Assembly: GCA_035632635.1 (NCBI GenBank)
Contig: DASQGL010000028.1
Span: 5,578 to 69,577 of the forward strand
Direction: 5' to 3'
Source of the DNA: Candidatus Limnocylindrales bacterium
Lineage (GTDB): Bacteria > Chloroflexota > Dormibacteria > CF-121
Length of the DNA stretch: 64,000 nucleotides
The position numbers were made by a program, and so were the translations under genes. Position 1 is the first letter of the stretch. Each line of letters opens with the position of its first letter. The notes beneath the pieces were generated by a model that was not told the DNA's origin, searched no databases, and saw only the letters and a program-made list of their open reading frames with translations. Positions 42,037 to 56,396 of this stretch are shown here, piece by piece.

Positions 42037-43244
42037 GCCGACTCCTGAACACGGTCGCCATCCTCCTCGCGATCGAGCTTCTCGATGAGCTGGTCGACGG
42101 GGTCAAGGGAGCGGCGCTGCCGCTGATTCGCACGGACCTGCACCTCTCCTATGCGGAGATCGGCCTCTTGCTCTCGGCGCCGATCATCCTCGGCAACCTG
42201 GTCGAAGCCCCACTGGGAATCCTCGCCGATCGCGGGTGGCGGCGAAGGCTGATCCTCACGGGGGGCGCCCTGTTCGTGCTCTCCCTTGCCACGATTGCGG
42301 GCGCGCAGGCGTTCTGGATGCTGCTGGGTGGCTTCGTCCTCTTCTACCCGGCCAGCGGCGCCTTCGTGTCGCTGGCGCAGGCCAGTCTGATGGACCTGGA
42401 CCCGGCCCGGCACGAAGCCAACATGGCCCGCTGGAATTTCGTCGGGGCGCTCGGCGCGGTGACCGGTTCGCTGCTGATCGCCGGCGCGATCACCCTTCAC
42501 GCGAGCTGGCGATTCGGCTTCGCGCTGCTGGCCGGCGCCGGGCTGGCCTGCGTGCTGGAGGCCGCCCGCGTGCCCCAGCTGAGCGGGACGCCGGAGGGCG
42601 TCGGCGAGAGCCTGCGCGACAGCGTGGTCGCCGCGCTGGCGGCGCTGCGCCGGCTCGCGGTCGTGCGCTGGCTGCTGTTACTGGAGGCCGCCGACCTGAT
42701 GCTCGACGTCTTCACCGGATTCCTGGCGGTCTTCCTGGTCGACGTCGGGCACCTGTCGCCGGTGGTGGCCGCCGTCGCCGTCGGCATCCGCCTGGGCGCC
42801 GATCTGCTGGGCGGCTTGCTGGTCATCCCGCTCGTAGAACAGGTCCCGGGCAGCGTCTATCTGCGCATCAGCGCCGGTCTCATGCTCGTCCTCTATCCGG
42901 CGTTCCTGCTCACACCCTGGCTGCCGGCGCGGCTCACCATCCTGGCGCTCCTCTCACTGTGCACCGCCGGATGGTATCCGGTGTTGAAGGCCGCCGTGTT
43001 CTCGGCGATGCCCGGCCGCAGCGGCACGGTGATGTCGATCGAAGACGTGGTCGCCATGCTCGGCGGCCTCGTGCCCGCCGCACTCGGACTGATCGCCACT
43101 TCAGCCGGACTCGCCGCCGCGATGTGGCTTCTGCTGCTCAGCCCGATGCTGCTGCTTGTCGGGACGGTTGCTCGGCGACGAGAGACGTCAGGCGGTCCTC
43201 GAGCTCTCCCAGGCCCACCCAGCGAATCTCGAGGGGAAGCTTGA
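42037..43244 (+). CDS. MFS transporter; the ORF track starts at TTG 42168, but the in-frame upstream 43 codons encode TM1 and MFS motif A
   Basis: LLNTVAILLAIELLDELVDG (TM1) and GILADRGWRRRLIL (motif A G-x3-D-R-x-G-R-R) lie upstream of the first ATG/GTG/TTG in frame. Confidence 0.55.
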
Positions 43245-43752
43245 GCGTGGCCGCGATCTTGCGAGCGCGATCGATCAGCCGGGCGTTGGGGAACTGACAG
43301 AGATAGATCAGGTTCGTGTAGTTGCCGAAATACACGGCCTGCAGCTCCGGAAAGCGGTCGAGGCCGAGCCCGCGCGAGACGGCCCGGTCGAAGTTGCGCA
43401 CCAGCCAATCGGTCAGGAAGAACGTCGCCGGCTGGTTCTCCGCGAGCCGCTCGAACTCCCGGGCCCCAGCGAACATCTCATAGCAGTGCGGACCCTTCAG
43501 GCAGACCGCGCCGTAACGCGCGAGCACGGGGTCGAGGGCTCCCGCCGTGCCGCAATCGCCGTAGACGACGATGACCCGCTCGTATCGTGGCGCGATGGTG
43601 TCCAGCTTGCGCTCGATCGCCTCGACGATCTTCTTCGGATAGAAGTGGTGCAGGGCGGGAATACCGTAGATGTCGACGTCCCATCCGCGCGCGTCGACGA
43701 GCGTCTTGACCTCCCTGCCCAGCGCCCCGCAGATGATCAGCGCCGTTCTCAC
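43138..43752 (-). CDS. DUF1638-domain protein (family found almost exclusively next to corrinoid-protein/methyltransferase genes)
   Basis: MRTALIICGALGREV...VVYGDCGT pattern. It is translationally coupled to the RACo gene upstream (4-nt overlap). Confidence 0.55.
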   Translation of the reverse strand: MRTALIICGALGREVKTLVDARGWDVDIYGIPALHHFYPKKIVEAIERKLDTIAPRYERVIVVYGDCGTAGALDPVLARYGAVCLKGPHCYEMFAGAREFERLAENQPATFFLTDWLVRNFDRAVSRGLGLDRFPELQAVYFGNYTNLIYLCQFPNARLIDRARKIAATLKLPLEIRWVGLGELEDRLTSLVAEQPSRQAAASG

Positions 43753-45572
43753 AGCGTGTCGAGCTCCGGAAATTGCAGCACCGAGATGAACGAGTCGTTG
43801 AAGTCGGCTCGGGCGGAGAGCTCGACGTACTCCACCTGCTCGGGAAGGTCGAAGGCAACCTGCCGCTCGCGGAAGGAGAGCAGTGTCATCTTCGCGCCCT
43901 CGCCAGCGGTGTTGCCAACCGAGAGGATCCGGTCGACCGGCACCGGGGGCACGAGACCGATGATCCTCGCGCTCTCCGGATTCAGATAGGAGCCGAACGA
44001 GCCGCCCAAGAGCACTTCATCGAGATCCCCGGCACTGACCCCGAGTTCGTCCATGAGCACCTTGATGCCGCCCGCAATCGACCCCTTGCCAAACTGCAAT
44101 TCGCGGACGTCCTTCTGGCTCAGGTAGACGCTATCGGCGAGCAGGAAGGCGCGCACGCCGTCGACCGTGATCAGCCGATCGGAGAGTGGGTGCTCGGGGA
44201 CCTCCTCGCGGCTCCGCATCCGGCCGGACGCATCGAGCAGGCCGCACAGCCGCAACTGCGCGATCGCGTCCACGAGTCCCGACCCGCAGATACCTCTTGC
44301 GGGGACGTCGCCGCCGATGATCTGGAGCTCGACGCGATCGCCGAGCGTGACCCCCTCGATGGCACCCTCGGTGGCCCGCATCCCGCACTTGATCTGGCTG
44401 CCTTCGAAGGCGGGGCCCGCCGGGGCGGCGGTGGCCAGGATCCGTCGCGACGACCCGAGCACGATCTCACCGTTGGTGCCCACGTCGACGAAGACGCGCA
44501 GCTTCTCTTCGCGGCCCAGCCCGGTCGCGATCACGCCCGCCACGATGTCCGCGCCGACGTAGGCGCCGATCAGCGGAAGGGTCTGAACCTTGCCGTTCGG
44601 ATGGATCTCCAGCCCGGCATCCCGGGCGTCCACGTAGAGGGCGCCGTGGAAGGCCGGAGTGAACGGCACCATCGAGATCGGGGTCGGATCGATGCCCAGC
44701 AACAGGTGCAGCATGGTCGCGTTTCCAACCACGACCGCCTCGTAAACCCGATCCCGTGCGACGCCGGACTCGGAGAACAGCTCGCTCAGGATGCCGTTCA
44801 TGCTGGTCCGGATCGCCGCTTGCAGCTCGCCAAGCGCCTCCGGCCCCAGCATGGCGTGGCTGATGCGGGAGATCACGTCCGCGCCGAAGGGCGCCTGGCC
44901 GTTGAGCGTCGACCGCACGGCTTCCGCCATCCCGGTGCGGAGGTTCATCAAGGTCCCGACCACGGTCGTCGTGCCGACATCGAACGCGACCCCGTAGCAG
45001 GCATCACGCGTGTCCCCGCCTTCTACGGCGATCAGCTGGTCCCCACCCAGGACCGCGGTCACCCTGAAGTCAGATGCGCGGAGCGTCGCCGGCAGCCGGG
45101 CCAGGACGGCGACGTTCCCCTTCATGTCGAAGCCCTCAGCGGTCAGCGCGTCCTGCAGGCGCTCGATGTCGCCTCGTTGGTCGGCGAGCGTCGGCTCCTG
45201 CAGCTCCACGTACACCTTGCGCACGTTCGGATCCAGCAACACCAGCCGGTTCACGCCCATGGTCGCCGCCTTGGGCACCCGCTGCAGCTCGGGCACCAGG
45301 CAGACCGTGTCCTGATAGACCTTCGATTGGCAGCTGAGCCGCCAGCCGGCCGCGATCTCGGACTCCCGCAGCTCCTTGCGGTCGGCCGTGGTGACGTCCA
45401 GGCCGCCATCCAGCACCTGGACCTTGCACTTGCCGCAGGTCCCCCGGCCACCGCAGGTCGAGTCGATCGGGAGGCCGATCCAGTGCGCCGCACTGAAGAG
45501 GGTGGTCCCCGGCGGGACCCGCGTCACCCGGTCGTACGGCTTGTAGGTGACCTCGAGCTTCTTGGCGATCAT
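43749..45572 (-). CDS. RACo-type reductive activator of corrinoid proteins (N-terminal plant-type [2Fe-2S] ferredoxin domain followed by an ASKHA ATPase domain)
   Basis: CGGRGTCGKCKV...C ferredoxin motif, then a long ASKHA-fold region (FDVGTTTVVG, DVGTNGEIV) and about 600 aa total length. Confidence 0.7.
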   Translation of the reverse strand: MIAKKLEVTYKPYDRVTRVPPGTTLFSAAHWIGLPIDSTCGGRGTCGKCKVQVLDGGLDVTTADRKELRESEIAAGWRLSCQSKVYQDTVCLVPELQRVPKAATMGVNRLVLLDPNVRKVYVELQEPTLADQRGDIERLQDALTAEGFDMKGNVAVLARLPATLRASDFRVTAVLGGDQLIAVEGGDTRDACYGVAFDVGTTTVVGTLMNLRTGMAEAVRSTLNGQAPFGADVISRISHAMLGPEALGELQAAIRTSMNGILSELFSESGVARDRVYEAVVVGNATMLHLLLGIDPTPISMVPFTPAFHGALYVDARDAGLEIHPNGKVQTLPLIGAYVGADIVAGVIATGLGREEKLRVFVDVGTNGEIVLGSSRRILATAAPAGPAFEGSQIKCGMRATEGAIEGVTLGDRVELQIIGGDVPARGICGSGLVDAIAQLRLCGLLDASGRMRSREEVPEHPLSDRLITVDGVRAFLLADSVYLSQKDVRELQFGKGSIAGGIKVLMDELGVSAGDLDEVLLGGSFGSYLNPESARIIGLVPPVPVDRILSVGNTAGEGAKMTLLSFRERQVAFDLPEQVEYVELSARADFNDSFISVLQFPELDTL

Positions 45573-46441
45573 GGACTGACCGGGGCCGGCGCTTTCTTCT
45601 GCCGTTCGCGGAAATCCGCAATCCAGCGCATCGCGTACTCGTCGTGTCCGAGCAGCAGGTCCGACGCCAGCACCGCCATCCGGACTTCACCGATCAGCGG
45701 ATTCGTGATGGCGCAGGTCAGTCCCGCACGCATCGCAACCGGCAGCCAGGCCGCGTTCAGGGCATGCCGGTCGGGCAGACCGAACGACACGTTCGAGGCG
45801 CCACACGTCATGTTGTTGCCGAGTTCGTCCCGGATCAGCTCCATCGTGCGCAACGTGATCACTCCCGCCTGCGGGTCGGCAGCCACGGTCATGGCGATCG
45901 GATCGATGACGACATCTTCCCTTGGAATGCCGTAGTAGACGGCACGCTCGACGATCTTGCGGGCGATCTGCAGCCGCTCCTCGGGCACCATCGTGATGCC
46001 GGTCTCGTCGTTGGCCATGCCGATCACGGCGGCGCCGTGCTTGCGCACCAGTGGCAGGATGCGATCGAGTCGTTCATCCTCGGCGGTGACCGAGTTGACG
46101 AGCGCCTTGCCCTCGTAGATCGGCAGGGCCGCCTCGAGGGCCTCGACGACCGAGGAGTCGAGGCAGAGGGGGACGTCGACCACCTCGGACACCGCGCGGA
46201 TGGTGGCCACGAGCAGGGCGGGCTCGTCGATCCCGGGAACGCCGGCGTTGACGTCCAGCATCTGGGCGCCCGCCGCGACCTGCGCGACCGCATCGGCCTT
46301 GACCCGCTCCATCCGCCCCACCTTCATCTCGGCGGCGAGGACCTTGCGGCCGGTCGGATTGATGCGCTCGCCGATCATGACGAACGGGGCTGCGCCGGAA
46401 ATCACGACCTCCCTCGAGCGGGAGCGCAGGATGGTCTCCAC
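45569..46441 (-). CDS. Methyltetrahydrofolate:corrinoid methyltransferase (pterin-binding DHPS-like TIM barrel; MtgA/AcsE/MetH-MeTr-like)
   Basis: VMIGERINPTGRK pterin-binding signature and about 290 aa length. Confidence 0.7.
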   Translation of the reverse strand: METILRSRSREVVISGAAPFVMIGERINPTGRKVLAAEMKVGRMERVKADAVAQVAAGAQMLDVNAGVPGIDEPALLVATIRAVSEVVDVPLCLDSSVVEALEAALPIYEGKALVNSVTAEDERLDRILPLVRKHGAAVIGMANDETGITMVPEERLQIARKIVERAVYYGIPREDVVIDPIAMTVAADPQAGVITLRTMELIRDELGNNMTCGASNVSFGLPDRHALNAAWLPVAMRAGLTCAITNPLIGEVRMAVLASDLLLGHDEYAMRWIADFRERQKKAPAPVSP

Positions 46442-47412
46442 TAGGCGCCCTCCGGGAGCGCCGCCACGCGAACGCCCGGTCCCGGGCCGGCCGCCGGACG
46501 GGGCAGCAGGCCTGCCTCCTCGACCACCGCCAGAACGCCCTCGTCCCAGCGGATCGCGATCACATGCACGCCGCGAACGCCGGGAATCTCGCGCAGGCCA
46601 CTGACCAGTTCGACGGCAATCCGGATGCCTTCCTGTGCCTGGCGTTCCGTGGGCACACCCTCGATGCGGCGGACGATCGACTCGGGGACGAAGACGCCCG
46701 GCACTTTCTCCCTCATGAATCGAGCGCCCCGGGCGGATCGCGGGACCGCGACCGATGGAATGATGGCCACCCGCTCGAGCAAGCCGAGGTCGCGCACCCG
46801 GGCCATGAAGTCCGCCAGCCCGCGCAGGTTGAAGACGAGCTGCGTCTGGATGAACTCGGCACCGGCCTCCACTTTCTTCTGCAGCCGCGCCGGCCGAAAC
46901 GCGATTGGCGGCGCAAACGGGTTCTCGACCGCGCCGATGAAGAAGCTCGGGGGCGCGTCCAGCTTCCGCCCACTCAGATAGATGCCCCGGTCGCGCATGG
47001 TGCGGGCGATCTGGACGAGCTGTATCGAGTCGATGTCGTAGATGGAGCGCGCCTCCGGATGGTCCCCGGCGCTGACGTCGTCGCCGCTCATCATGATCAC
47101 GTTGCGGACACCGAGCGCCGCGGCGCCCAGCAGGTCCGCCTGCAGACCGAGGCGATTGCGGTCCCGGGTCGTGAGCTGCATGATCGGCTCGATGCCCGCC
47201 TCGGCCAGCAGGTGGGCCGCCGCCAGGGGCGACAGATGCACGTGGGCTCCGGTGTTGTCGGTGCAGTTGATCGCGTCGGCGTGCGCGCGCAGCCTGGACG
47301 CGCGGGCGATGGTCACCGCCGGGTCGGGGCTGTCGATGGCGGAAAGCTCCGCCGTGACCACGAACTCGCCGCGCTGAAGGAGCTCCCCCAGCCGGCTGGG
47401 CGGATGGCTCAC
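46441..47412 (-). CDS. metF: 5,10-methylenetetrahydrofolate reductase
   Basis: The GTG start overlaps the metV stop (GTGA). FVVTAELSAIDSP, TDNTGAHVH and MQLTTRDRNR motifs of MTHFR. Confidence 0.75.
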   Translation of the reverse strand: MSHPPSRLGELLQRGEFVVTAELSAIDSPDPAVTIARASRLRAHADAINCTDNTGAHVHLSPLAAAHLLAEAGIEPIMQLTTRDRNRLGLQADLLGAAALGVRNVIMMSGDDVSAGDHPEARSIYDIDSIQLVQIARTMRDRGIYLSGRKLDAPPSFFIGAVENPFAPPIAFRPARLQKKVEAGAEFIQTQLVFNLRGLADFMARVRDLGLLERVAIIPSVAVPRSARGARFMREKVPGVFVPESIVRRIEGVPTERQAQEGIRIAVELVSGLREIPGVRGVHVIAIRWDEGVLAVVEEAGLLPRPAAGPGPGVRVAALPEGA

Positions 47413-47783
47413 ATCCGATCGCCGTCCCAGCCGGCCGGCCGGCGATGGTCGCGCCCGCTGACGAGATTGATCCAGGAGGAGGTGCCCTTCAGCCGCCAGT
47501 CCACGGGCGGGTTGAGATGCTGCATGTGGTCGCGCCACAGCGGGAGGCGCCGTGATCCCTCATACGCCTTCACCCAGACGCAGGGCCGGTCGGGAAACAC
47601 CTCGCAGTTCCCGTTGGCGCGAACGCCGCCGCAAGGCCCGTTGCGCAGGTTCTTGGGACAGCGCATCGGGCAGGTCAACCCGGTCGAGTGCAGGATGCAT
47701 TGGCCGCACATCCGGCAGTCCCAGATGGCCTCCTTGAGCGGTTTCTCGAGCGCGATCACGGCCTGTTCGAGGAGAGTGCCCAT
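47409..47783 (-). CDS. metV: MetV-like zinc-ribbon protein (MTHFR C-terminal-like domain, small partner subunit of MetF in acetogen-type systems)
   Basis: Cys-rich CRMCGQCILHSTGLTCPMRCPKNLRNGPCGG pattern, located immediately upstream of and coupled to metF. Confidence 0.6.
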   Translation of the reverse strand: MGTLLEQAVIALEKPLKEAIWDCRMCGQCILHSTGLTCPMRCPKNLRNGPCGGVRANGNCEVFPDRPCVWVKAYEGSRRLPLWRDHMQHLNPPVDWRLKGTSSWINLVSGRDHRRPAGWDGDRM

Positions 47784-47790
47784 CGCCCGG

Positions 47791-48507
47791 TTACCCCTTC
47801 TTGAGCGTCTTGTCGATCAGCTCGACGGCCTGGGTCAGCGCCGCGTTCTCGGCCGCCTGCGCCGCGCCCACGATTTGCTTCGCCATCCGCGTGGCCATCG
47901 ACGCGTCAGGCGCGTAATGGTCGGCGCCGGACAGCTTCGCGTATTCCTCGGTCACGGGGGCCCCGCCAACCATGACGGCGACCTTGTCGCGCAGGCCCGC
48001 CTTCTTGAGCGCCTCGATGTTGACCTTGAACATGGGCATGGTCGTGGTCAGGAAGGCGGAGAAGCCGACGATATGCGGCTCGTGCGTCCGGACAGCCTCG
48101 ACGAACTTCTCCGGCGCGGTGTTCACGCCGAGGTCGACGACCTCGAAACCGGCGCCTTCGAGCATGATGATCACGAGATTCTTCCCGATGTCGTGGATAT
48201 CGCCCTTGACCGTCCCGATCACGTACTTCCCGATGGGTTTTGCACCGGTCTCGGCGATCAGCGGGCGGAGCAGGGTCAGGGCGCCCTGCATGGCGCGCGC
48301 CGCAATCAGCATCTCCGGCACGAAGAACTCCCCGCGCTCGAACCGGCGGCCGACCTCCTCGAGCGAGGGAATCAGCGCCTTGAAGAGGATGTCCATCGGA
48401 TCCATCTTCAAGGCGAGCGCCTCTTCGGTCAGCCGCTTGACCTCGGGGGCGTGGCCGTTGAGCGTGTGGTCGAACAGCTCCTGTCGAATCTCGTCCTCGC
48501 GACTCAT
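47791..48507 (-). CDS. Cobalamin-binding corrinoid protein (MtgC/MtmC-like)
   Basis: AGGAGG RBS; B12-binding DxHxxG motif (GDIHDIGKN) in a Rossmann-like domain after an N-terminal helical cap. The internal ATG at 48507 is the real start, not the 49392 ORF-track start. Confidence 0.8.
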   Translation of the reverse strand: MSREDEIRQELFDHTLNGHAPEVKRLTEEALALKMDPMDILFKALIPSLEEVGRRFERGEFFVPEMLIAARAMQGALTLLRPLIAETGAKPIGKYVIGTVKGDIHDIGKNLVIIMLEGAGFEVVDLGVNTAPEKFVEAVRTHEPHIVGFSAFLTTTMPMFKVNIEALKKAGLRDKVAVMVGGAPVTEEYAKLSGADHYAPDASMATRMAKQIVGAAQAAENAALTQAVELIDKTLKKG

Positions 48508-49313: not shown

Positions 49314-49425
49314 AGCACAACAGTCTACGCTCCCGGTCGGCGGATGGAAAGGGGTCGCGCGCGACGCCCGCGGAGGCTGCTTCGGGCGGCATCCCGGGGT
49401 CCGCGGCGGCCCTTGACGGTGGCGT

Positions 49426-49472
49426 TAGGCCGTGCTACGTTCGGCGCGCTGATATATCAGCGATATACGGCA
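49426..49472 (+). promoter_or_regulatory. Putative sigma-70-like promoter (TTGACG -17- TACGTT) plus a perfect 12-bp palindrome CTGATATATCAG (operator candidate) upstream of the GntR gene and divergent from the IclR gene
   Basis: TTGACG at 49426-49431 and TACGTT at 49449-49454. The palindrome at 49461-49472 sits just before the AGGAGGG RBS. Confidence 0.4.
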
Positions 49473-49483
49473 GGAGGGAAGCC

Positions 49484-50201
49484 CTTGGCGAGCGAGGTCG
49501 AAGCTCGTCCGCTCGCGCGCCGGCAAGGCCTGGACCCGGCACAGCTCCGGACCGTGGTCCTGCACGGCGATTCGGCGCGGTCGCAGAGCCAGCGCGCCTA
49601 CCTCCTGATCCGGGACCAGATCGTCACCCTGAAACTCGCTCCCGGGTCGGTGATCGAGGAGGCTCGCCTGCGCGAGGATCTGCACCTGGGCCGGACCCCG
49701 ATCCGCGAGGCGCTCCAGCGGCTCGCCCACGAGAATCTCGTCTCCTTCGTCCCCCACCGGGGCACCTTCGTGACCGACATCAACATCCAGGACCTCGGCC
49801 ATCTCACCGAGGTCCGCACCGAGCTCGAGGGCTATGCGGCCCGGCTTGCGGCCGAGCGCGCCTCCGTCGCCGAGCGCGGGGCGATGGGCGCCCTGCTCAC
49901 CGAGCTGCGGAGCACGCAGTCCGCCGGGCCGCTCGCCCTGATGCAGCTCGACCAGAAGATCCACCGGCAGATCTACCGGGCAACCCGCAACGGGTTCCTG
50001 GCGGGCGTCCTCGAGCAGTACTTCAACCTGACGCTGCGGCTCTGGTTCCTGGTCCTCGACCGGGGCGTCCATCTGCGGGAAGCGGTGCAGGAGCATCGCG
50101 AAGCGCTCGAGGCAATCGTGGGAAGGGAAGCGGCGACGGCGGAGGCGATCATGCGCCGGCACGTGGTCGGTTTCGAACAGGAAGTCCGGCGGGTGCTCTG
50201 A
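49484..50201 (+). CDS. GntR-family transcriptional regulator (FadR/FCD subfamily); probable TTG start
   Basis: wHTH LLIRDQIVTLKLAPGSVIEEARLREDLHLGRTPIREALQRLAHENLV plus a helical FCD domain. Confidence 0.7.
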
Positions 50202-50226
50202 ACGAAATGGACAAGGGAGGGGTGCG

Positions 50227-51159
50227 GTGAGACTCTTCTACACGACCGATCTGCACGGATCCGAGGTCTGCTGGCGCAAGTTCCTCAATGCGGCCGCCTA
50301 CTACCGGGCGGACGTCCTGATCTGCGGGGGCGACATGACGGGCAAGGCGATGATCCCGCTCGTCGACGAGGGCGACCATTACGAGTTCGCGCTGTCCGGG
50401 CAGCATCAGCGCGTGTCCCGCGACGAGATTGCGGACGTCGAGAGCCAGATCCAGCGGCGCGGGTATTACCCCGTCCGGATGTCCTCGGCCCAGGTCGCCG
50501 AACTCGAGGCAGACCCGAAGAAGGTGCAGACCCTGTTCACCGAGCAGATGTGCAAGACCGTCGAGCGCTGGATGGACATGGCGGAAGACAAGCTCGGCAA
50601 CAGTCCGGTTCGGATCTTCGTCTCCCCCGGCAACGATGACGAGATCGAGATCGACGAGGTGATCGCCAGGTCGACCAAGGTCGAGCTCGCGGAAGGCAAA
50701 TGCATCGACATCGGCGGCTACGAGATGATCTCCTCCGGCTGGGCCAACCCCACTCCGTGGCACACCTATCGCGAGGCTCCCGAGGAAGAGCTCGCGAAGA
50801 TGATGGAGCCGATGCTCGCCCAGATCAAGCAGATGAGCCGGGCGATCTTCAACTTCCATCCGCCGCCCTACGGCACCTCGCTCGACGAGGCGCCCGCCCT
50901 CGACGCGGACCTCCGCCCCATGCACGGCGGGCGCGCACTCCGCCACGTCGGCTCGACCGCAGTGCGGGAGGCGATCGACGAGCACCAGCCAATGCTGTCG
51001 CTGCATGGCCACATCCACGAAGGCAAGGGCATCACCCGGATGGGTAAGACGCTCGCGATCAACACCGGCAGCGCGTACGAGGAAGGCATCCTGATGTCGG
51101 CGATCCTCGAGCTCGACCAGAAGAAGGGCATCAAGAATTACCAGCTGGTGTCCGGCTGA
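50227..51159 (+). CDS. Metallophosphoesterase (calcineurin-like phosphoesterase) family protein
   Basis: GTG start. TDLHG, GDMTG, GNDD and HGHIHEG motifs. Confidence 0.65.
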   Translation: MRLFYTTDLHGSEVCWRKFLNAAAYYRADVLICGGDMTGKAMIPLVDEGDHYEFALSGQHQRVSRDEIADVESQIQRRGYYPVRMSSAQVAELEADPKKVQTLFTEQMCKTVERWMDMAEDKLGNSPVRIFVSPGNDDEIEIDEVIARSTKVELAEGKCIDIGGYEMISSGWANPTPWHTYREAPEEELAKMMEPMLAQIKQMSRAIFNFHPPPYGTSLDEAPALDADLRPMHGGRALRHVGSTAVREAIDEHQPMLSLHGHIHEGKGITRMGKTLAINTGSAYEEGILMSAILELDQKKGIKNYQLVSG

Positions 51160-51235
51160 CGGATGGAGGTGATCCACACAGCGAACTCACGATAATCGGC
51201 GATCGGCGAATCAAGGAATGAATGGAGGAACGTAT

Positions 51236-52873
51236 ATGGCGACAGGGACGGCCGCACCGCCCCGACAGACCCTCTTCCTGAGGAATGCCACCGGCCTCGT
51301 GAAGGCATGGTCCGGTTTCGATGCGTTCATTTACTCGTTCATGTCGGTCAATCTCGTCGCGCTCGGTTTCGGCGCCTTCGCGTCGGCGGGGTTCATCGCC
51401 AACGGGCATATCCTCTCCGCGGTGATCATTGCCGGCATCTTCGTGACCTTCCTGGTCCTGACCTATGCCATCCTCGTCGCGGCAATGCCGCGGGCGGGCG
51501 GGGATTACACCTGGCAATCGCGCGTGCTCGGCGGCGGCGCCGCCTTCGTCCTCTCGATGACCGGCTGGTGGTTCATCCTGTGGCACTGGACGCCGATCTA
51601 CGCGGCCATCCTCAACCAGCAGGTGCTCGCTCCCCTGTCGGCGACGATCGGCCGGACCGACTGGGCGACATTCTTCAGTCCTACCACCGGTACCGGCCTG
51701 TTCGTGGCCTGCCTCGTCGTTCTCGCCTTCGTCTGCGTGTACGTGACCATGGGCATGGAGGGCTACGCCAAGATCCAGAAGTTCTGCTTCTGGCTCGGGC
51801 TGGCCGGCCTCGCGGTCATGGCCGTGCTCCTGCTCGTCAACGACCAGACCTCGATGCAGAACGCCATCAACCGTGAGGCGACGAGCATCTTCGGCTACCA
51901 GGGCAATGCCTACCAGGACACGCTCAAGGTCGCCACCAAGGCCGGATACAGCGTGACCGGCTTCAACGCCTTCTCATTCGGACCGACGCTCGCGCTCGTT
52001 CCGTTCCTTCTCTTCTATCTCCTCTGGCCCGTGTGGGGCGCGACTCTGTACGGTGAGGTGCGCGGCACCAAGGACTACCGGAGGATCTTCAACTCGATGT
52101 TCTGGGGCCTTTGGGTCACCGTGATTCTCTCCGTGGTCGTCCTGCTGCTCCTGGCCAAGACGATCGGCTGGGAGTTCTTCCAGGCAGCCGCCTACAATGC
52201 CACATTCGGGGTGGCCAATGCGCCCATTCCGATCTGGCCCCATCCGGTCATGCTCACGGGCTGGTTGGTACATAACCACGCGTTCCAGTTCATCCTGCTG
52301 GCGGTCATGAGCGTCTGGTTCTGGGGCTGGTCCGGGACGCTCTTCCTGTCCTCGACCCGTGTCATCTTCGCGGCCGCTTTCGATCGGGTTCTGCCGGAGT
52401 GGGCCGCGAATATCTCCGCCAAGCGCCGGGTGCCCTACGGGGCGCTGATCCTGATGGTGGTTCCGGCACTCGTGATCAGCGCGATCTATGCCTACGTCAA
52501 CGGCTTCAGCACGCTCGTCCTCGACGCGACGCTCGTTATCGCCATCACCTATCTCGGCACGGTGGTAGCCGCGGCCATCCTGCCCTGGCGACGGCCGACG
52601 ATCTTCACCAACTCCCCGATCGCGAAGCTACGGGTCGGCGGAGTCCCGGTGATCACGGTCGGCGCCGCGGTGGCGGGCGTCTTCCTGATCTTCAACATCG
52701 TCAAGTGGCTCGCCGATCCGACCTACGGCATCGGGCTGAGCAACCCGAAATCGATGTGGTACCTGGCCGCGATGTATGTTCTCGCCCTCGTCGTCTACGT
52801 CGCCGCATTCCTGTATCGCCGCTCGCAGGGCATCGACCTGCGCGCCATTCACCACGAGATTCCCGTCGAGTAA
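51236..52873 (+). CDS. APC-superfamily amino acid / polyamine / organocation permease
   Basis: A GGAGG RBS precedes the ATG at 51236. About 12 TM helices with APC-like topology. Confidence 0.7.
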   Translation: MATGTAAPPRQTLFLRNATGLVKAWSGFDAFIYSFMSVNLVALGFGAFASAGFIANGHILSAVIIAGIFVTFLVLTYAILVAAMPRAGGDYTWQSRVLGGGAAFVLSMTGWWFILWHWTPIYAAILNQQVLAPLSATIGRTDWATFFSPTTGTGLFVACLVVLAFVCVYVTMGMEGYAKIQKFCFWLGLAGLAVMAVLLLVNDQTSMQNAINREATSIFGYQGNAYQDTLKVATKAGYSVTGFNAFSFGPTLALVPFLLFYLLWPVWGATLYGEVRGTKDYRRIFNSMFWGLWVTVILSVVVLLLLAKTIGWEFFQAAAYNATFGVANAPIPIWPHPVMLTGWLVHNHAFQFILLAVMSVWFWGWSGTLFLSSTRVIFAAAFDRVLPEWAANISAKRRVPYGALILMVVPALVISAIYAYVNGFSTLVLDATLVIAITYLGTVVAAAILPWRRPTIFTNSPIAKLRVGGVPVITVGAAVAGVFLIFNIVKWLADPTYGIGLSNPKSMWYLAAMYVLALVVYVAAFLYRRSQGIDLRAIHHEIPVE

Positions 52874-52895
52874 CCGACTAGTATTCAGCTGACGC

Positions 52896-52929
52896 AGGCG
52901 GAGGCCGCGTCCTCCGCCTGCACTCGTCC
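52896..52929 (+). terminator. GC-rich hairpin (possible U-tract-less terminator or attenuator) between the permease and Fe-ADH genes
   Basis: GCAGGCGGAGG-ccgcgt-CCTCCGCCTGC is a perfect 11-bp stem with a 6-nt loop; there is no T-run. Confidence 0.3.
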
Positions 52930-52944
52930 AACAAGGAGGAAGGC

Positions 52945-54192
52945 GTGCTGCTCGACAGCGTTCTTCGCAGCTACCAGTCGCCGACCCGCATGGTCCATGC
53001 GATCGGCGCCATCAAGGCCCTCGGCGACGAGGTCAAGGCGCTTGGCGTGCGCCGGCCGCTCCTCGTCACCGATCAGGGCATCGTCAAAGCCGGGCTGCTC
53101 GACGAAGCGATGACGCCGCTCAAGGCGGCCGGCCTCGATCCCGTGCCGTTCGCCGAGGTGCGGGCCAACCCCGGGATCGCGCTCGTCGACCAGGGGGCGC
53201 GCGAGTACCAGACGCAGCGCTGCGACGGCCTGATCGGGATGGGCGGGGGGAGTTCGATCGATACGGCGAAGGGCATCGGGGTGGTCGCCGTGCATGGCGG
53301 CAGCATCGTCCAGTACGAGTGGGGCAAGGACCCCATTCACTCGCGGATTCCGCCGCTCGTCGCCGTGCCCACCACCGCCGGCACCGGTAGCGAGGTGACC
53401 CTCTGGGCCGTGATCACCGATCCGAATCGCAAGATCAAGTTCAACGTGGGCGGGACGCCCAACATCGCAGCGCACGTGGCGCTCATCGATCCGGCGCTCT
53501 CGGTCAACCTGCCGCCCGGCGTGACCGCGGGCACTGGAATGGATGCGCTCACCCACGCAATCGAGTGCTTCACCATGGCCTACCACCAGCCCTTCACCGA
53601 CGCAGTCGCCCTGCTCGGCATGGAGTACTGCGCGAAATGGTTGCGGATCGCGTTCTCCCAGTCGCACAACCTGGAAGCGCGCTACCACATGTCGCTGGGC
53701 GCCATGCTCGCCGGGCTGGCCTACGGCACCGATTCGGCCGGGGCGGCGCACGCGATGAGCCAGTCGGCGGGCGGCGTTCACGATGCGCCGCATGGCGCGC
53801 TCACCGGCCGCCTGCTCGCGCCCGTCATGGAATACAACTACTCCGGCGAACCGGAGCGCTTCGCTCGGATCGCGCAGGCGATGGGCGAGGATACGCATGG
53901 CCTCTCCACCTGGAAGGCGGCCGAACTCGCCGTCGACGCCGTCTACCAGCTGACCGAAGACGTCGAGATCCCGAGCTTGAACGAGCTGGGCTTTTCCGAG
54001 GAGGAGATCCCGATGCTCGCGGAAAAAGCGGAAGCCGACGCTCAAACGATCGGCAATCCGCGCGACGTCGATGCCCGCAACTATCGCCGGATCTACGCCC
54101 GGGCTTTCGAGGCCGGCCACCATCGGCATGCCGACGCGCATCACGATGGTGAGGTCGCCCACGCCGCCGAGGTCTCGCGTGTGGCGAAATAA
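52945..54192 (+). CDS. Iron-containing (type III) alcohol dehydrogenase family protein
   Basis: GTG start after an AAGGAGGAAGG RBS. GGGSSIDTAKG NAD-binding motif and Fe-ligand His residues (HAIECF...H). Confidence 0.75.
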   Translation: MLLDSVLRSYQSPTRMVHAIGAIKALGDEVKALGVRRPLLVTDQGIVKAGLLDEAMTPLKAAGLDPVPFAEVRANPGIALVDQGAREYQTQRCDGLIGMGGGSSIDTAKGIGVVAVHGGSIVQYEWGKDPIHSRIPPLVAVPTTAGTGSEVTLWAVITDPNRKIKFNVGGTPNIAAHVALIDPALSVNLPPGVTAGTGMDALTHAIECFTMAYHQPFTDAVALLGMEYCAKWLRIAFSQSHNLEARYHMSLGAMLAGLAYGTDSAGAAHAMSQSAGGVHDAPHGALTGRLLAPVMEYNYSGEPERFARIAQAMGEDTHGLSTWKAAELAVDAVYQLTEDVEIPSLNELGFSEEEIPMLAEKAEADAQTIGNPRDVDARNYRRIYARAFEAGHHRHADAHHDGEVAHAAEVSRVAK

Positions 54193-55633
54193 CCTGCCGC
54201 GGGTCAACCTGCTCAGCGACGGCGAGGTCGAGCAGATCCACGCCCAGGCCATGCTGATCCTGAGGGAGATCGGTATCGACTTCCTCCACCCGCGGGCGCT
54301 GGAGCGGTTCAAGGCCGCCGGGCTGCCGATCGAGGAGAACCGCGTCCGTTTCGAAGAAGCCTTCATCCTGGAGCAGCTCCGGCAGGTGCCGGAGAGCTTT
54401 CAGGTCCAGGCGCGGAACCCGGCGAACACGGTCACGATCGGCGAGAACTACATGGTCAACGCTCCCGTCTACGGGTGTCCCTTCATCACGGATCTCGACC
54501 GCGGGCGGCGCAACGCCACCATCGGCGATTTCACGAACTTCGACAAGTTGGCGCAGGCGACGCCGCAGATTCACTGCGCCGGCGGCACCATCGTGGAGCC
54601 GGACGACCTCCCTCAGGAAACGCGTCATCTCGACATGGTCTACTCCCACATCCGATGGACCGACAAGCCGTACATGGGTGGCGTCATCTCCGAGGAGGCC
54701 GCCCGCGATTCGATCGAGATGAGCTCGATCGTCTTCGGTGGACGCGACCGGATTGAAAAGACCCCCGCGCTTCTCGCCCTGATCAACGTCAACAGCCCGA
54801 TGCGCTTCGATGACCGGATGCTGGGCGCCCTGATGGAGTACGCGGCTGCCAACCAACCCGCCATCGTCACCCCGTTCCTCATGGCCGGGGCCATGTCCCC
54901 GATGGGTCTGGCAGGAAGCATCGCCCAGCAAACGGCAGAGGCCCTCGCCGGGATCGCTCTCATCCAGCTCGTGAGGCCGGGCGCGCCCTGCGTCTACGGC
55001 TCCTTCCTCACGAACGTCGACATGCAGTCGGGAAGCCCAGCCTTCGGTACGCCGGAATCCGCGCTCGGCATCCTGGCCAGTGCCCAGATGGCCCGCCACT
55101 ACCGGATCCCGTTCCGCGGCGGGGGCGCGCTGACCTCGTCCAAGTCCCCGGATGCCCAGGCTGCCTACGAGTCGATGATGTGCATGTGGCCGACGGTCCT
55201 CGGCGGCGTCCACTTCGTCTTGCACGCCGCCGGCTGGCTCGAGAGCGCGCTGCTGGCCTCCTACGAGAAATTCATCATCGATGTCGAGTGCCTGCGCATG
55301 TTCGAATGGATGATGACCAAAGGCATCCCGTTCGACGACGAGGGTCTGGCCATGGATGGGATCCGCGAGGTCGGACCGGGCGGCCATCATCTCGGATCCG
55401 AGCACACCATGCGGAATTACCGCACCGGCTTCTACCGGCCGCTGATCTCGTCGACCGAGAGCTTCGATCGCTGGAACCGGATGGGCGCCCGGACCGCCGA
55501 CCGGGTGGCGAATGAAAAGTGGAAGCAGATGCTGGCGGATTACAAGGACCCCGCAATCGATCCTGGGGTGGAGGAGCAATTGCAGGCGTTCATGTCCAGG
55601 CGGAAGGAGGAGATTCTGGGTGCCCGCGTCTAA
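54178..55633 (+). CDS. MttB-superfamily (trimethylamine methyltransferase-like) corrinoid methyltransferase without in-frame amber codon, consistent with a glycine betaine/quaternary-amine-type (MtgB-like) member
   Basis: GTG start (MWRNNLPRVNLLSDGEVEQIHAQ...), TIM-barrel-length protein of about 485 aa with MttB family features, and no internal UAG. It overlaps the Fe-ADH gene end by 15 nt. Confidence 0.7.
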
Positions 55634-56396
55634 GGTCACGAGCAAGCCGCTGGAAGACGTCATCGACGAGGCCCGCCGGATCGGTGAGGCTGCGGAGGCG
55701 GCCGGGCTCCAGCTGAAGCTGGTTGGCGGGGCCGCGGTTCGCCTGCATTCGGCGACCACCGAGCGTCCGCCGCTGCGCCGGCGTTACGGCGACCTGGATT
55801 TCGTGGCCTCGTCCAAGCAGCGTGGCCAGGTCCAGAAGCTGTTCGAATCGCTCGGTTACCAGGGGGACCTTCGGTTCAATACGCTGAACGGGCACCAGCG
55901 GCTGCTCTATCTCGACCCCGAAAACGGCCGGCAGGTCGACATCTTCATCGACGTGATGCGCATGTGCCACACGATCGACCTGCGATCGCGGCTCAACCAT
56001 GCCGGTCCGACCCTGACGCCAGCCGACCTGCTCCTCAGCAAGATGCAGATCTACGAGATCAACAAGAAGGACGTCGTCGACATCACGGCGCTCTTCCTCG
56101 ACCACGACATCGGGGAGGACGACAACGACCGGATCAACGCGACCTATCTCGCCGGGCTGGCAGCCGGGGAGTGGGGACTCTACCGGACGCTGCAGCTCAA
56201 CGCCGAGCGGCTGCGGGCCGCGGTCGACGACCTGGCCGTCGCGCGCGAGATCGTGCTGGAGCGGCTCGAGCGGCTTCGTGAGCGCATCGAGGACCAGCCG
56301 AAATCCCTGAAGTGGAAAGTTCGGGCCCGGGTGGGTGACCGGGTCAGCTGGTACGAACTCCCTGAGGAGGTCCGGCAGCCGTACCAGGCTGAGTAA
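55619..56396 (+). CDS. Hypothetical protein, possible nucleotidyltransferase-fold protein
   Basis: The GTG start overlaps the MttB-family gene by 15 nt. LVGGAAVRLHS...YGDLDFV resembles a minimal nucleotidyltransferase G-S/D-x-D core; the assignment is weak. Confidence 0.35.

Follow-up and report, generated by a model that had tools for sequence, protein, structure and literature searches.

The question raised by this locus is what a complete corrinoid-dependent methyl-transfer gene set does in a bacterium that is neither a methanogen nor an acetogen. The host, an uncultured soil bacterium of a Dormibacteria/Chloroflexota lineage, is probably an aerobe. Within the window (the whole stretch of DNA analysed, 64 kb), the island comprises the full B12-dependent gene set for demethylating glycine betaine or choline, and we consider it likely that it operates as an aerobic-type, cobalamin-dependent glycine betaine:tetrahydrofolate methyltransferase system within a choline/betaine catabolic island.

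Organization of the island

The core of the island is composed of two divergent operons separated by an intergenic region:

43138–43752, minus strand: DUF1638 protein, last gene of its operon (PF07796, 92 bits)
43749–45572, minus strand: RACo/RamA-like ATP-dependent reductive activator (Fer2, RACo_linker, Raco_middle and RACo_C_ter, Pfam)
45569–46441, minus strand: pterin-binding methylcorrinoid:tetrahydrofolate methyltransferase (PF00809, 96 bits)
46441–47412, minus strand: MetF-type methylenetetrahydrofolate reductase, the MetF2 equivalent (PF02219, 107 bits)
47409–47783, minus strand: MetV, small Cys-rich partner of MetF (PF12225, 93 bits)
47791–48507, minus strand: MtgC-type corrinoid (cobalamin-binding) protein (PF02607 and PF02310)
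48504–49313, minus strand: IclR-family regulator, first gene of its operon (HTH_IclR and IclR_C)
49447–49462, divergent iclR/gntR intergenic region: perfect 16-bp palindrome CGCTGATATATCAGCG
49485–50201, plus strand: GntR/FCD-family regulator, divergent from iclR (annotation of relatives and NCBIfam family matches)
50227–51159, plus strand: calcineurin-type metallophosphoesterase-like protein of 310 aa (weak Metallophos matches only, Pfam)
51218–52873, plus strand: APC-superfamily permease (PF13520, 77 bits; syntenic in relatives)
52945–54192, plus strand: GbsB-type (type III, Fe) choline dehydrogenase (Fe-ADH and ADH_Fe_C)
54179–55633, plus strand: MttB-superfamily methyltransferase, non-pyrrolysine, probable MtgB (PF06253, 654 bits)
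55620–56396, plus strand: 258-aa protein, last gene of its operon (weak PF14907 match only)

The seven genes of the minus-strand operon, arranged as iclR–mtgC–metV–metF–mtgA–RACo–DUF1638, are translationally coupled. At five of the six gene junctions, the stop codon of one gene overlaps or directly adjoins the start codon of the next, through ATGA at iclR/mtgC (4 nt) and mtgA/RACo, GTGA at metV/metF and RACo/DUF1638, and a single nucleotide at metF/mtgA, while mtgC and metV are separated by 7 nt; the metF gene starts with the GTG at 47412, overlapping the metV stop by 4 nt. The corrinoid protein carries the DxHxxG motif as GDIHDIG and matched 1Y80 (188 bits) and MttC 7XCN_M (149 bits) in the PDB; among NCBIfam models it scored best against MtgC_2, a glycine-betaine corrinoid protein, with 193 bits, under the cutoff of 370. 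The pterin-binding methyltransferase, named MtgA in anaerobes and MtgD by Mausz et al. (PMC12478193), scored 301 bits against NF005719 (NCBIfam cutoff 259) and matched MeTr (2YCK, 138 bits) and D. hafniense MtgA (4O0Q/4O1E, 127 bits). The activator aligned over its full length with PDB 3ZYY (residues 6–605, 365 bits), and its N-terminal [2Fe-2S] ferredoxin domain contains the Cys motif CGGRGTCGKC...C. The DUF1638 protein is an accessory in corrinoid reactivation.

[quoted passage not shown] The coupling of metV to metF, the 4-nt coupling of the IclR gene to the corrinoid gene, and the divergent GntR gene were likewise confirmed; only the start of the MttB-family gene, placed at 54178, had to be moved to the GTG at 54179. 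Its reading of the locus as a three-component corrinoid methyl-transfer system with an activator and MetVF, serving quaternary-amine catabolism in a non-methanogen and non-acetogen, holds: the domains, the resemblance to MtgB, MeTr, and RACo proteins of known structure, the operon structure, and the conserved synteny with betaine genes agree.

The plus-strand operon is ordered gntR–phosphoesterase–permease–gbsB–mtgB, followed by the gene for the 258-aa protein, with overlaps of 14 nt at both gbsB/mtgB and the last junction. The gntR gene is read as starting at a TTG codon 7 nt downstream of a GGAGG ribosome-binding site, and its product is 71% identical to L001 GntR. The palindrome core GATATATC occurs in exactly one copy per locus in six distinct relative loci, always immediately 5′ of gntR, which makes it a candidate operator; the position of iclR is also the same in relatives. 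The phosphoesterase-like protein displays the motifs DLHG, GGD, GNDD, and GHIH, is syntenic in relatives with 79–85% identity, and might possibly free choline from a phosphoester. The APC permease, which may in fact begin at the ATG at 51236, is a candidate choline/betaine importer. GbsB passed the NCBIfam choline dehydrogenase equivalog NF053866 with 583 bits (cutoff 550). The 258-aa protein is 66% identical to the product of the gene closing the same operon in relatives, and no relative of it was found in the PDB.

Flanking genes and conservation in related genomes

The two regulators, the permease and the GbsB-like Fe-ADH, all present, had been described as completing the locus, but the island proved larger than first noted, and it also includes the following genes:

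34552–37068, plus strand: dimethylglycine/sarcosine dehydrogenase (DMGDH)-like flavoprotein with a folate-binding GcvT domain (DAO, FAO_M, GCV_T and GCV_T_C)
37082–38821, plus strand: electron transfer flavoprotein (ETF), beta (37082–37846) and alpha (37850–38821) subunits (PF01012, PF00766)
40563–41666, minus strand: flavoenzyme of the monomeric sarcosine oxidase/N-methyltryptophan oxidase family (PF01266)
41708–41965, minus strand: small PF13769 ("Virulence_fact") protein of 85 aa (72 bits; gene call from a Logan contig copy)
42168–43244, plus strand: MFS transporter (PF07690)

The DMGDH-like gene, the ETF genes, and the monomeric oxidase gene lie 2–9 kb from the operons. The oxidase scored 461 bits against NF008425 (cutoff 257) and 308 bits against soxA_mon, and belongs to an O2-using family. 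ETF probably accepts electrons from the DMGDH-like enzyme. The MFS gene is convergent with the DUF1638 gene and overlaps its 3′ end. The ETF, nirK, and F420-type neighbours mentioned in the original prediction exist but are loosely linked: the NirK-like gene (5422–7071; 181 bits, under the NCBIfam cutoff of 296) is about 36 kb from the nearest gene of the island, and a single small F420H2-quinone-reductase-family ORF (4916–5284) is at least 36 kb away.

The comparison covered the genomes of nine Dormibacterota species, an uncultured "Chloroflexia" MAG, and additional metagenome contigs, and the island is kept in at least nine Dormibacterota species. In all relative loci with upstream sequence, an Fe-ADH gene is situated 5′ of mtgB. 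Relatives also have a PF01633/PF01636 choline-kinase/APH-family gene just 5′ of the Fe-ADH gene. Every relative locus extending 3′ of mtgB bears an aldehyde dehydrogenase gene, either as the next gene or behind a DMGDH-like gene overlapping the mtgB end, so that a betaine-making enzyme lies on one side of mtgB and a dimethylglycine-consuming enzyme on the other. In contrast, no aldehyde dehydrogenase is encoded anywhere in our 64-kb window, the only one with this gene missing after mtgB, and the choline branch is therefore incomplete here, unlike in every relative. The DMGDH-like protein is 42% identical to the one encoded 3′ of mtgB in relatives; in this genome the dimethylglycine-processing genes are 12–19 kb from mtgB and not adjacent to it, which we count against the betaine reading.

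Identity of the methyltransferase and its substrate

Translated from the GTG start, the product has 484 aa and the same sequence as a MAG protein at NCBI. It matched D. hafniense MtgB (2QNE/9YCE) over its full length with 469 bits and 47% identity, and S. meliloti 4YYC with 464 bits, while true MttB reached only 144 bits; the fold match to 9YCE and 4YYC had a TM-score of 0.83 (Foldseek). This product is probably the glycine betaine:corrinoid methyltransferase MtgB. Mutagenesis and a betaine-bound crystal established Y97, R312, H348, and F356 as the betaine-binding residues of MtgB (PMC13080624), and three of these four are kept here as Y98, R313, and H349, their equivalents being invariant in 45 clade members. 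The fourth is lost, with A357 at the position of F356 and W353 at that of I352, four residues earlier, an arrangement shared by S. meliloti 4YYC (Y-R-H-W-small signature). In D. hafniense MtgB, F356L raises the Km about 800-fold (PMC13080624). An aromatic residue occurs at 352 in 39 sequences and at 356 in 50, at both in none, and at neither in 28. This mutually exclusive pattern, which mostly mirrors one deep split in the tree, gives rise to the idea that Trp at 352 could stand in for F356; the AF2 model has a pLDDT below 50 at residues 351–359, the same loop, and is thus unreliable there. In the tree, our MtgB falls in a Trp-type superclade with S. meliloti, outside the D. hafniense clade; a literature search found no biochemical assay of any Trp-type clade member.

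There is a small chance that the enzyme feeds another quaternary amine into the same corrinoid machinery, for example phosphocholine, proline betaine, carnitine, or another N-methylated compound. MtyB and MtcB share 53% identity and prefer different substrates (PMC8604678), so identity is a weak guide in a superfamily where specificity can change at identities above 50%, and position 97 is non-aromatic in other Trp-type clusters, which suggests varied substrates in the clade. F356 is not kept, but Y97, R312, and H348 all are, and the aromatic pair is reported as unconserved in MtcB, MtpB, MthB, and MtyB (PMC13080624). The kinase-family gene of the relatives recalls the MthK–MthB pairing of Eubacterium limosum, in which MthB, acting on phosphocholine, is paired with a choline kinase (PMC12155760), and the gene for the metallophosphoesterase-like protein is a conserved part of the island, but the window has no kinase gene. 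The enzymes flanking mtgB in relatives, which make betaine (choline and aldehyde dehydrogenases) and consume dimethylglycine, fit betaine specifically, and 4YYC, with the same signature, belongs to a locus assigned to betaine demethylation (PMC12478193).

Predicted pathway

Under glycine betaine demethylation, choline or betaine would be imported by the APC permease or the MFS transporter, and choline would be oxidized to betaine aldehyde by the GbsB-type dehydrogenase and then to glycine betaine by an aldehyde dehydrogenase encoded beyond the window. MtgB would demethylate glycine betaine once, placing the N-methyl group on the Co(I) of MtgC and releasing dimethylglycine, and tetrahydrofolate would then receive the methyl group of methyl-Co(III) through the pterin-binding methyltransferase. 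MetV–MetF is predicted to oxidize methyl-THF to methylene-THF for subsequent C1 oxidation or assimilation. Corrinoid oxidized to Co(II) would be re-reduced at the expense of ATP by the [2Fe-2S]/ASKHA RACo/RamA-like activator, with DUF1638 taking part in the same step. Dimethylglycine would be converted to sarcosine and glycine by the DMGDH-like flavoprotein, with electrons passing to ETF, and the sarcosine-oxidase-like enzyme. The IclR and GntR regulators, together with the conserved palindrome between the divergent operons, may control expression.

It is very improbable that the minus-strand operon serves chiefly as a split methionine synthase transferring the methyl of methyl-THF to homocysteine, with betaine demethylation secondary or absent. 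Methionine synthesis in P. inhibens and R. pomeroyi depends on the homologous MtgC, MtgD, RamA-like, and DUF1638 proteins (PMC5764234, PMC12478193), and metV–metF could work reductively, supplying methyl-THF, but the homocysteine-binding module (MtgE/Bhmt-like, PF02574) was found neither by tblastn of the 64 kb with the S. meliloti protein nor in Pfam scans covering most ORFs called in the window, and the operon is conserved together with the divergent gbsB–mtgB and betaine-pathway genes across the clade. [quoted passage not shown]

Comparison with known systems

The locus had been presented as novel, a framing that does not stand, since the same component set is already known from aerobes of marine and root-nodule origin. 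Mausz et al. (PNAS 2025) reported MtgBCD with RamA, DUF1638, and MetF2 from Ruegeria pomeroyi, an aerobe, as well as an mtg locus in Sinorhizobium meliloti in which the genes are co-localised (PMC12478193), and Price et al. found a corrinoid methyltransferase to depend on RamA-like and DUF1638 genes in P. inhibens grown aerobically (PMC5764234). The S. meliloti locus bears homologues of all seven corrinoid-operon genes, MetV included, with 32–55% identity: 50% for the corrinoid protein and for the pterin-binding methyltransferase, 46% for MetF against its MTHFR, and 55% for MetV against a protein annotated as "MTHFR C-terminal domain". The original prediction correctly noted a mismatch with canonical mtgBCA, as gene order and regulators differ from those of D. 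hafniense, but that locus is not the relevant comparator. The pathway is thus known and the host is new: what is new here is the Dormibacterota lineage, and the pairing with a GbsB-type choline dehydrogenase and the clustered layout differ too. No paper on this island in Dormibacterota was found in the literature.

We give hardly any credence to anaerobic methylotrophy of the Desulfitobacterium/acetogen style, in which betaine-derived methyl-THF would be disproportionated via the Wood–Ljungdahl or a related anaerobic pathway under anoxia: for the activator, the corrinoid protein, and the pterin-binding methyltransferase the nearest PDB proteins come from anaerobes (Carboxydothermus RACo and MeTr, Moorella 1Y80) and the MetV–MetF pair is of the acetogen type, but strictly aerobic S. 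meliloti has the same MetV–MetF, RACo-like, and DUF1638 set, the window has no CODH/ACS genes, the neighbours encode an oxidase-family sarcosine/N-methyltryptophan oxidase, an ETF-linked DMGDH-like enzyme, and a copper nitrite-reductase-like protein, MtgB groups with S. meliloti rather than D. hafniense, and Dormibacterota are reportedly aerobic soil oligotrophs. One survey of MAGs grouped Limnocylindria genes of this kind with anaerobic methylotrophy (PMC11264602). A further feature concerns the small PF13769 gene, situated 5′ of the oxidase gene here, a homologue of which lies 5′ of metV–metF in S. meliloti.

Gene Content and Organization of the Corrinoid and Divergent Operons

The window has a G+C content of 66–72% throughout, which gives rise to long spurious ORFs on both strands; the real genes were chosen by third-position GC together with HMM matches, and the Pfam/HMM scan covered most of the ORFs called across the window. 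Long antisense ORFs (e.g., 43773–45935 (+), 46564–48549 (+), and 53825–55759 (−)) showed the wrong codon-position GC, none had a Pfam match among those scanned, and they were rejected as high-GC artefacts. According to the HMM matches, the genes that the original prediction had assigned to a corrinoid methyltransferase island exist, belong to the families claimed for them, and lie at essentially the same coordinates. They fall into two divergent operons:

49313 down to 43138 (−): corrinoid operon of seven genes, encoding IclR, the corrinoid protein, MetV, MetF, the pterin methyltransferase, the RACo-type activator, and DUF1638
47791–48507 (−): mtgC, corrinoid protein
within the corrinoid operon (−): metV, encoding MetV (PF12225)
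43749–45572 (−): RACo-type activator
43138–43752 (−): DUF1638 protein
from 49485 (+): divergent operon of six genes, encoding a GntR/FCD regulator, a 310-aa protein, an APC permease, an Fe-alcohol dehydrogenase (Fe-ADH), the MttB-family protein, and a 258-aa protein
49485–50201 (+): gntR, GntR/FCD regulator, divergent from iclR
50227–51159 (+): 310-aa metallophosphoesterase-like protein
52945–54192 (+): gbsB, Fe-ADH
54179–55633 (+): mtgB, MttB-family methyltransferase
55620–56396 (+): 258-aa protein

Within the corrinoid operon, iclR and mtgC overlap at an ATGA, mtgC and metV are separated by a 7 nt gap, metV and metF share a GTGA, the metF/mtgA junction is of 1 nt, mtgA and the RACo gene overlap at an ATGA, and the RACo and DUF1638 genes at a GTGA. 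Of the six junctions, five thus have overlapping or abutting start and stop codons, which makes the seven-gene set a single translationally coupled operon. The metV-metF pair is located directly 5′ of mtgA and coupled to it, placing a dedicated MetF paralogue beside the pterin methyltransferase.

The B12-binding domain expected in the product of 47791–48507 was found as PF02607 and PF02310 (the B12-binding cap and domain), with the DxHxxG motif present as GDIHDIG. The best PDB matches of this corrinoid protein were the Moorella corrinoid protein and MttC, and it shared 50% identity with its Sinorhizobium meliloti counterpart; MtgC was its best NCBIfam model, yet with 193 bits against a cutoff of 370. 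The stand-alone pterin-binding methyltransferase (MtgA/MtgD) carries PF00809, scores above the cutoff of NF005719, and shares 50% identity with its S. meliloti homologue, its nearest PDB entries being Carboxydothermus MeTr, the folate domain of MetH, and MtgA of D. hafniense. The activator contains all four Pfam domains (Fer2, linker, middle, and ASKHA ATPase), matches RACo 3ZYY end to end over residues 6–605, and bears the plant-type [2Fe-2S] cysteines in a CX4CX2C...C motif. It is 33% identical to the S. meliloti counterpart, and, with 436 bits from the NCBIfam AcsV model against a cutoff of 800, it is not an AcsV equivalog.

The DUF1638 protein shares 40% identity with that of S. meliloti. 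Its residues Cys8, Asp66-Cys67, and His89-Cys90 were invariant among 38 aligned homologues, and this Cys/His set could bind a metal or cluster. The AF2 model (pLDDT 86.5) has a two-lobed α/β fold whose structural neighbours were generic, with no specific relative. In Phaeobacter inhibens, genetics linked DUF1638 and a RamA-like protein to corrinoid methyltransferase function in aerobic growth (PMC5764234). More speculatively, the protein might assist corrinoid reactivation in the presence of oxygen through redox chemistry or metal binding.

In the divergent operon, the Fe-ADH passes the NCBIfam GbsB choline-dehydrogenase equivalog model NF053866 with 582.8 bits against a cutoff of 550. The GTG start of mtgB at 54179 overlaps the dehydrogenase stop, and the gene for the 258-aa protein overlaps the mtgB stop by 14 nt. 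The 310-aa protein has sub-threshold Pfam matches, and all calcineurin-type motifs are visible by eye; in the relatives, it is conserved at 79–85% identity directly after gntR, and it might release choline from phosphocholine or glycerophosphocholine. For the 258-aa protein, the only match was a weak one to PF14907 (nucleotidyltransferase-like), while its homologue (256 aa in the relatives) is the conserved final gene of the gbsB-mtgB operon in all relatives. PDB sequence searches with the 310-aa and 258-aa proteins returned no solved relative for either.

Regulatory Elements

A perfect 16-bp palindrome, CGCTGATATATCAGCG, is situated at 49447–49462 in the intergenic region that iclR shares with the divergent gntR. 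The palindrome has an AT-rich core, GATATATC, which is found exactly once per locus in the relatives, whose genomes have about 68% G+C, and always just 5′ of gntR (position 1885 in locus L001, 6498 in L004, 602 in L008, 1953 in L009, 5306 in L012, and 1941 in L013). Judged from this sequence conservation, CGCTGATATATCAGCG is likely an operator, and we put it forward as a candidate. The 71 nt separating the permease stop codon from the gbsB start contain a G+C-rich hairpin, GCAGGCGGAGGCCGCGTCCTCCGCCTGC (about 52890–52920), which lacks a T tract and could serve as an mRNA-processing or attenuation element. The whole window gave no Rfam match at the gathering threshold, and hence no cobalamin (B12) riboswitch; a promoter/terminator consensus scan returned matches no more frequent than expected by chance.

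The Methyltransferase MtgB and Its Active Site

The family assignment of the proposed methyltransferase at 54178–55633 was borne out by a PF06253 match of 654 bits covering profile positions 21–499 of 500, but the start had to be moved from 54178 to a GTG at 54179, giving a 484-aa product identical to an NCBI MAG protein. Over its full length, this product matched D. hafniense MtgB (2QNE/9YCE) with 469 bits and 47% identity, and it matched S. meliloti 4YYC with 464 bits; the pyrrolysine-containing trimethylamine methyltransferase (7XCL) was matched with 144 bits and 25% identity. Likewise, the AF2 model (pTM 0.81, mean pLDDT 75) superimposed on 9YCE, 2QNE, and 4YYC with TM scores of 0.82–0.85 and on MttB 7XCL with 0.79. 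A true trimethylamine methyltransferase MttB was rejected, as the ORF is an uninterrupted 484 aa with no in-frame UAG, and the TIGR02369 score of 309 falls short of the cutoff of 525.

Mutagenesis and a betaine-bound crystal of D. hafniense MtgB assigned the betaine contacts to Y97 and F356 (cation-π) and to R312 and H348 (carboxylate) (Picking et al., JBC 2026, PMC13080624). In our alignment, Y98, R313, and H349 of the window protein correspond to Y97, R312, and H348, while A357 stands at F356 and W353 at position 352, which is Ile in D. hafniense. Y98, R313, H349, and W353 are invariant in the Dormibacteria clade, the first three as counted over 45 clade members. S. meliloti 4YYC likewise combines Trp with a small residue (Gly), so that it has the Y-R-H-W-small signature in common with the window MtgB.

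The active-site survey and the neighbour-joining (NJ) tree covered 117 sequences, namely, 114 representatives of 50%-identity clusters, the window protein (a separate cluster at 50% identity), and 2 anchors. Aromatic residues at positions 352 and 356 never occurred together: 39 sequences carried an aromatic at 352 and 50 at 356, and the remaining 28 had none at either position. The NJ tree, drawn without support values, separated a "Trp-352" superclade (the window, S. meliloti, and a Leisingera plasmid homologue) from an "aromatic-356" superclade with D. hafniense. The cluster representatives were anonymous, and among characterised or solved enzymes this placement relies on the PDB anchors D. 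hafniense MtgB, S. meliloti 4YYC, and M. barkeri MttB.

It is a real, if tentative, possibility that the Trp-type MtgB clade (the window protein, S. meliloti 4YYC, and many proteobacterial homologues) binds glycine betaine through a different aromatic cage, in which W352 replaces F356 (Gly/Ala). The mutual exclusion of aromatics at 352 and 356 is suggestive rather than strong evidence for such a rebuilt cage, because it largely reflects one deep split in the tree. An argument from helix periodicity, by which 352 and 356 would be one turn apart, was discarded: in the AF2 model, strand 7 is followed by a loop with pLDDT <50 that contains both positions. If the proposal is true, the four-residue motif proposed as the minimum for a betaine-specific MtgB would misclassify a form common in aerobes and soils, and Y97-R312-H348-W352-small356 would be a marker of aerobic betaine demethylation.

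Conserved Synteny in the Relatives

The closest MttB-family relatives (74–87% identity) are very numerous in soil metagenomes and are named Candidatus Dormibacteraeota or Chloroflexi. In a scan of GTDB species genomes, 9 Dormibacterota species and 1 "Chloroflexia" MAG were recovered at 82–85% identity, followed at 46–49% by Alphaproteobacteria and Acidimicrobiales. The labels are mixed because the rank of Dormibacterota varies: it is placed beside Chloroflexota as a sister phylum or inside it as a class (PMC10608941).

Gene order was compared, where flanks were present, across metagenome contigs and the 10 close genome loci. The conserved arrangement runs from the corrinoid operon through iclR, the divergent gntR, the 310-aa protein, the permease, and optional dimethylglycine dehydrogenase-like (DMGDH-like) and choline-kinase-family genes to the Fe-ADH, mtgB, an optional DMGDH-like gene overlapping the mtgB end, an aldehyde dehydrogenase (Aldedh), and the 256-aa protein. 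The flanking HD-GAF-GGDEF, RNA methyltransferase, and radical-SAM genes are syntenic between the window and the relatives, indicating that the island was inherited within the lineage and is not a recent import. The choline-kinase/APH-family gene (PF01633/PF01636) is located just upstream of the Fe-ADH (L001 7787–8698, L004 8049–8699, and other loci), and Aldedh was found in every relative locus reaching downstream of mtgB. In the relatives, mtgB is therefore flanked by two betaine-making enzymes and an enzyme of the dimethylglycine-demethylating type, which is the strongest argument for glycine betaine as the substrate.

The window was the only locus examined in which mtgB runs straight into the 256/258-aa gene (compare L001 11439–15439). 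It lacks the Aldedh present in every relative, the mtgB-adjacent DMGDH-like gene present in most relatives, and the kinase-family gene. With the relatives' Aldedh as the tblastn query, no match was obtained in the 64-kb window, and the loss of the betaine-aldehyde dehydrogenase from the cluster is lineage-specific.

Flanking Demethylation Genes and the Likely Substrate

Several genes on the low-coordinate side of the corrinoid operon bear on the fate of the demethylated product:

34552–37068: DMGDH-like flavoprotein with DAO-FAO_M-GCV_T-GCV_T_C architecture (dimethylglycine/sarcosine dehydrogenase type)
37082–38821: ETF β and α, directly after the DMGDH-like gene
40563–41666: monomeric sarcosine/N-methyltryptophan-oxidase-family enzyme (MSOX/MTOX; NF008425, 461 bits vs. 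cutoff 257)
41708–41965 (−): small PF13769 ("Virulence_fact") protein, upstream of the sarcosine-oxidase-like gene

The DMGDH-like protein with its ETF and the sarcosine-oxidase-like enzyme would supply both later demethylations, from dimethylglycine to glycine, and the presence of flanking genes for these two steps makes the functional island larger than originally drawn. Whereas gbsB adjoins mtgB, the DMGDH-like/ETF and MSOX-like genes are 12–19 kb away from it, and the DMGDH-like gene at 34552 is a 42%-identical paralogue of the one adjacent to mtgB in the relatives. Indirect indications, namely, the MSOX/MTOX oxidase-family gene, ETF, and the taxonomy of the relatives, suggest a probably aerobic host, although the window contains no terminal oxidase.

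Since MtyB and MtcB are 53% identical yet prefer different substrates, the assignment of a substrate calls for caution. A phosphocholine substrate, as in the MthB/MthK system (PMC12155760), would accord with the choline-kinase-family gene of the relatives and with the missing F356. We nevertheless disfavour it: no choline kinase homologue exists anywhere in the 64-kb window, the residues equivalent to Y97, R312, and H348 are conserved, and the neighbouring genes make betaine and use dimethylglycine. The comparison with Eubacterium limosum MthB-MthC-MthA and MthK (Jiang et al. 2025, PMC12155760), made by gene context, leads to the same view. In both systems, an MttB-superfamily protein, a corrinoid protein, and a THF methyltransferase occur together in a setting related to choline, and the kinase-family gene of the relatives recalls the MthK-MthB pairing; in contrast, the window has no kinase, and the functions predicted for its neighbours, namely, oxidation of choline to betaine and demethylation of dimethylglycine, favour betaine over phosphocholine.

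Comparison with Known Corrinoid Systems

The reading of the locus in the original prediction, as corrinoid-dependent demethylation for quaternary-amine catabolism, was essentially right in view of the domains, the conserved context, and homology. The accompanying suggestion that the locus was of an undescribed kind has been overtaken by the 2025 literature (Mausz et al., PMC12478193). Mausz et al. (PNAS 2025, PMC12478193) reported that the aerobic Ruegeria pomeroyi DSS-3 requires MtgC, its stand-alone corrinoid protein, and MtgD, which is a pterin-binding methyltransferase, for growth on betaine. The induced proteins were two MtgB proteins of family PF06253, the RamA-like activator, DUF1638, and an additional MetF; such genes are co-localised in S. 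meliloti and many marine bacteria (PMC12478193). The S. meliloti locus contains an ASKHA activator, a methyl-THF:cobalamin methyltransferase, an MTHFR, an MTHFR-C-terminal-domain protein, a PF13769 protein, DUF1638, a cobalamin-binding protein, and the MttB-family protein 4YYC. Every component of the window has a homologue there, and the island thus belongs to a known kind of system. The same seven families are shared, each window protein being 32–55% identical to its S. meliloti homologue, including MetV and the nearby PF13769 protein, and in both cases there is linkage to dimethylglycine and sarcosine demethylation genes. In contrast to the Mausz system, the host is a Chloroflexota/Dormibacterota soil lineage and not one of the Pseudomonadota, the corrinoid parts are all in one translationally coupled operon headed by the iclR gene, and the choline dehydrogenase is a GbsB-type Fe-alcohol dehydrogenase instead of BetA. 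Neither MtgE nor cobalamin-synthesis genes are nearby, and MtgB is only about 46% identical.

The corrinoid operon could also be read as a methionine synthase, a dual role that was shown in Ruegeria (PMC12478193). The split methionine synthase of Phaeobacter inhibens (Price et al. 2018, PMC5764234) similarly has stand-alone B12-binding and pterin-binding proteins, a ferredoxin-ASKHA activator, and DUF1638. A pure methionine-synthase role is unlikely: the 64-kb window has no homologue of the homocysteine module MtgE/Bhmt (homocysteine methyltransferase), and the set shows a conserved pairing with gbsB-mtgB, clustering with an MttB-family methyltransferase and betaine-pathway genes, in contrast to P. 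inhibens. With neighbours of the oxidase family and others linked to ETF, a precedent in S. meliloti, and the position of MtgB in the tree, an anaerobic methylotrophic role of the island is unlikely.

The MtgB-MtgC-MtgA system of Desulfitobacterium hafniense, reportedly described by Ticak and colleagues in 2014, shares its three-component chemistry with the betaine demethylation proposed here. Compared with these proteins (2QNE/9YCE, 4O1E), MtgB of the window is 47% identical and keeps the Y97/R312/H348 set, and the pterin methyltransferase matches MtgA at 127 bits. However, Ala replaces F356, Trp stands at 352, the window protein falls in the other superclade of the NJ tree, and the gene order and regulators differ. 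The host is also probably aerobic, and its methyl-THF would be oxidised and not used for anaerobic respiration. The Methanosarcina MttB-MttC pair (7XCL/7XCN) shares PF06253 and the TIM-barrel (TM 0.79), and the corrinoid protein scores 149 bits to MttC; the window MtgB differs in its 25% identity and in having no UAG/pyrrolysine, and the methyl acceptor is THF rather than coenzyme M.

Significance of the Dormibacterota Island

What is new here is the host lineage for a known system, which, as far as we found, was not previously described in Dormibacterota; our literature search returned no paper describing it there. In a MAG survey, corrinoid methyltransferase genes of Limnocylindria were filed under anaerobic methylotrophy (PMC11264602). 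Aerobic B12-dependent betaine demethylation, recently recognised in marine and rhizobial Pseudomonadota, would thereby reach a soil lineage that is abundant, uncultured, and oligotrophic, in which the island is kept in at least 9 Dormibacterota species and hundreds of soil metagenome contigs. Cobalamin supply may gate the turnover of choline/betaine osmolytes in soil, and for this isolate-free lineage, choline or betaine with B12 is a hint for cultivation. Thousands of proteins of the "trimethylamine methyltransferase family" are unannotated or misannotated. As regards mechanism, the island leaves current understanding as it is. The possible variant aromatic cage, common to other aerobic-type enzymes, is suggestive and modestly interesting on the residue comparisons, and the published betaine-binding motif does not carry over unchanged to the aerobic-type clade.

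Other Genes of the Window

The nirK gene reported as a neighbour corresponds to a NirK-like multicopper protein gene (5422–7071, +) that is present but distant from the island; its product carries an additional cupredoxin domain at the C-terminus, and its 181 bits lie below the NCBIfam equivalog cutoff of 296, which makes the name nirK tentative. As for the F420-type enzymes placed beside the island, a single small ORF of the F420H2-quinone-reductase family was found (4916–5284), likewise at a distance. Exact-sequence contig look-ups returned nothing for RACo and MtgB, and the one for DUF1638 retrieved a single match, the 6.6-kb Logan copy of this contig. Other flanking genes encode ribosomal protein S4 and an MFS transporter.

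A homologue of the PF13769 protein is situated in the S. meliloti mtg locus (L007, 7075–7377), directly 5′ of metV-metF; its recurrence beside C1/folate genes hints at an accessory role not recognised so far. Genes for class-I SAM-dependent methyltransferases are dense, with four in about 4 kb (30384–34518) beside the DMGDH-like gene and another at 8047–9183. Finally, the segment 14046–19647 is composed of genes encoding a GntR/FCD regulator, a fused acetyl-CoA-carboxylase-type carboxyltransferase, two family-III CoA-transferases, and an enoyl-CoA hydratase, and its content suggests catabolism of organic acids and CoA esters, without a connection to the island.
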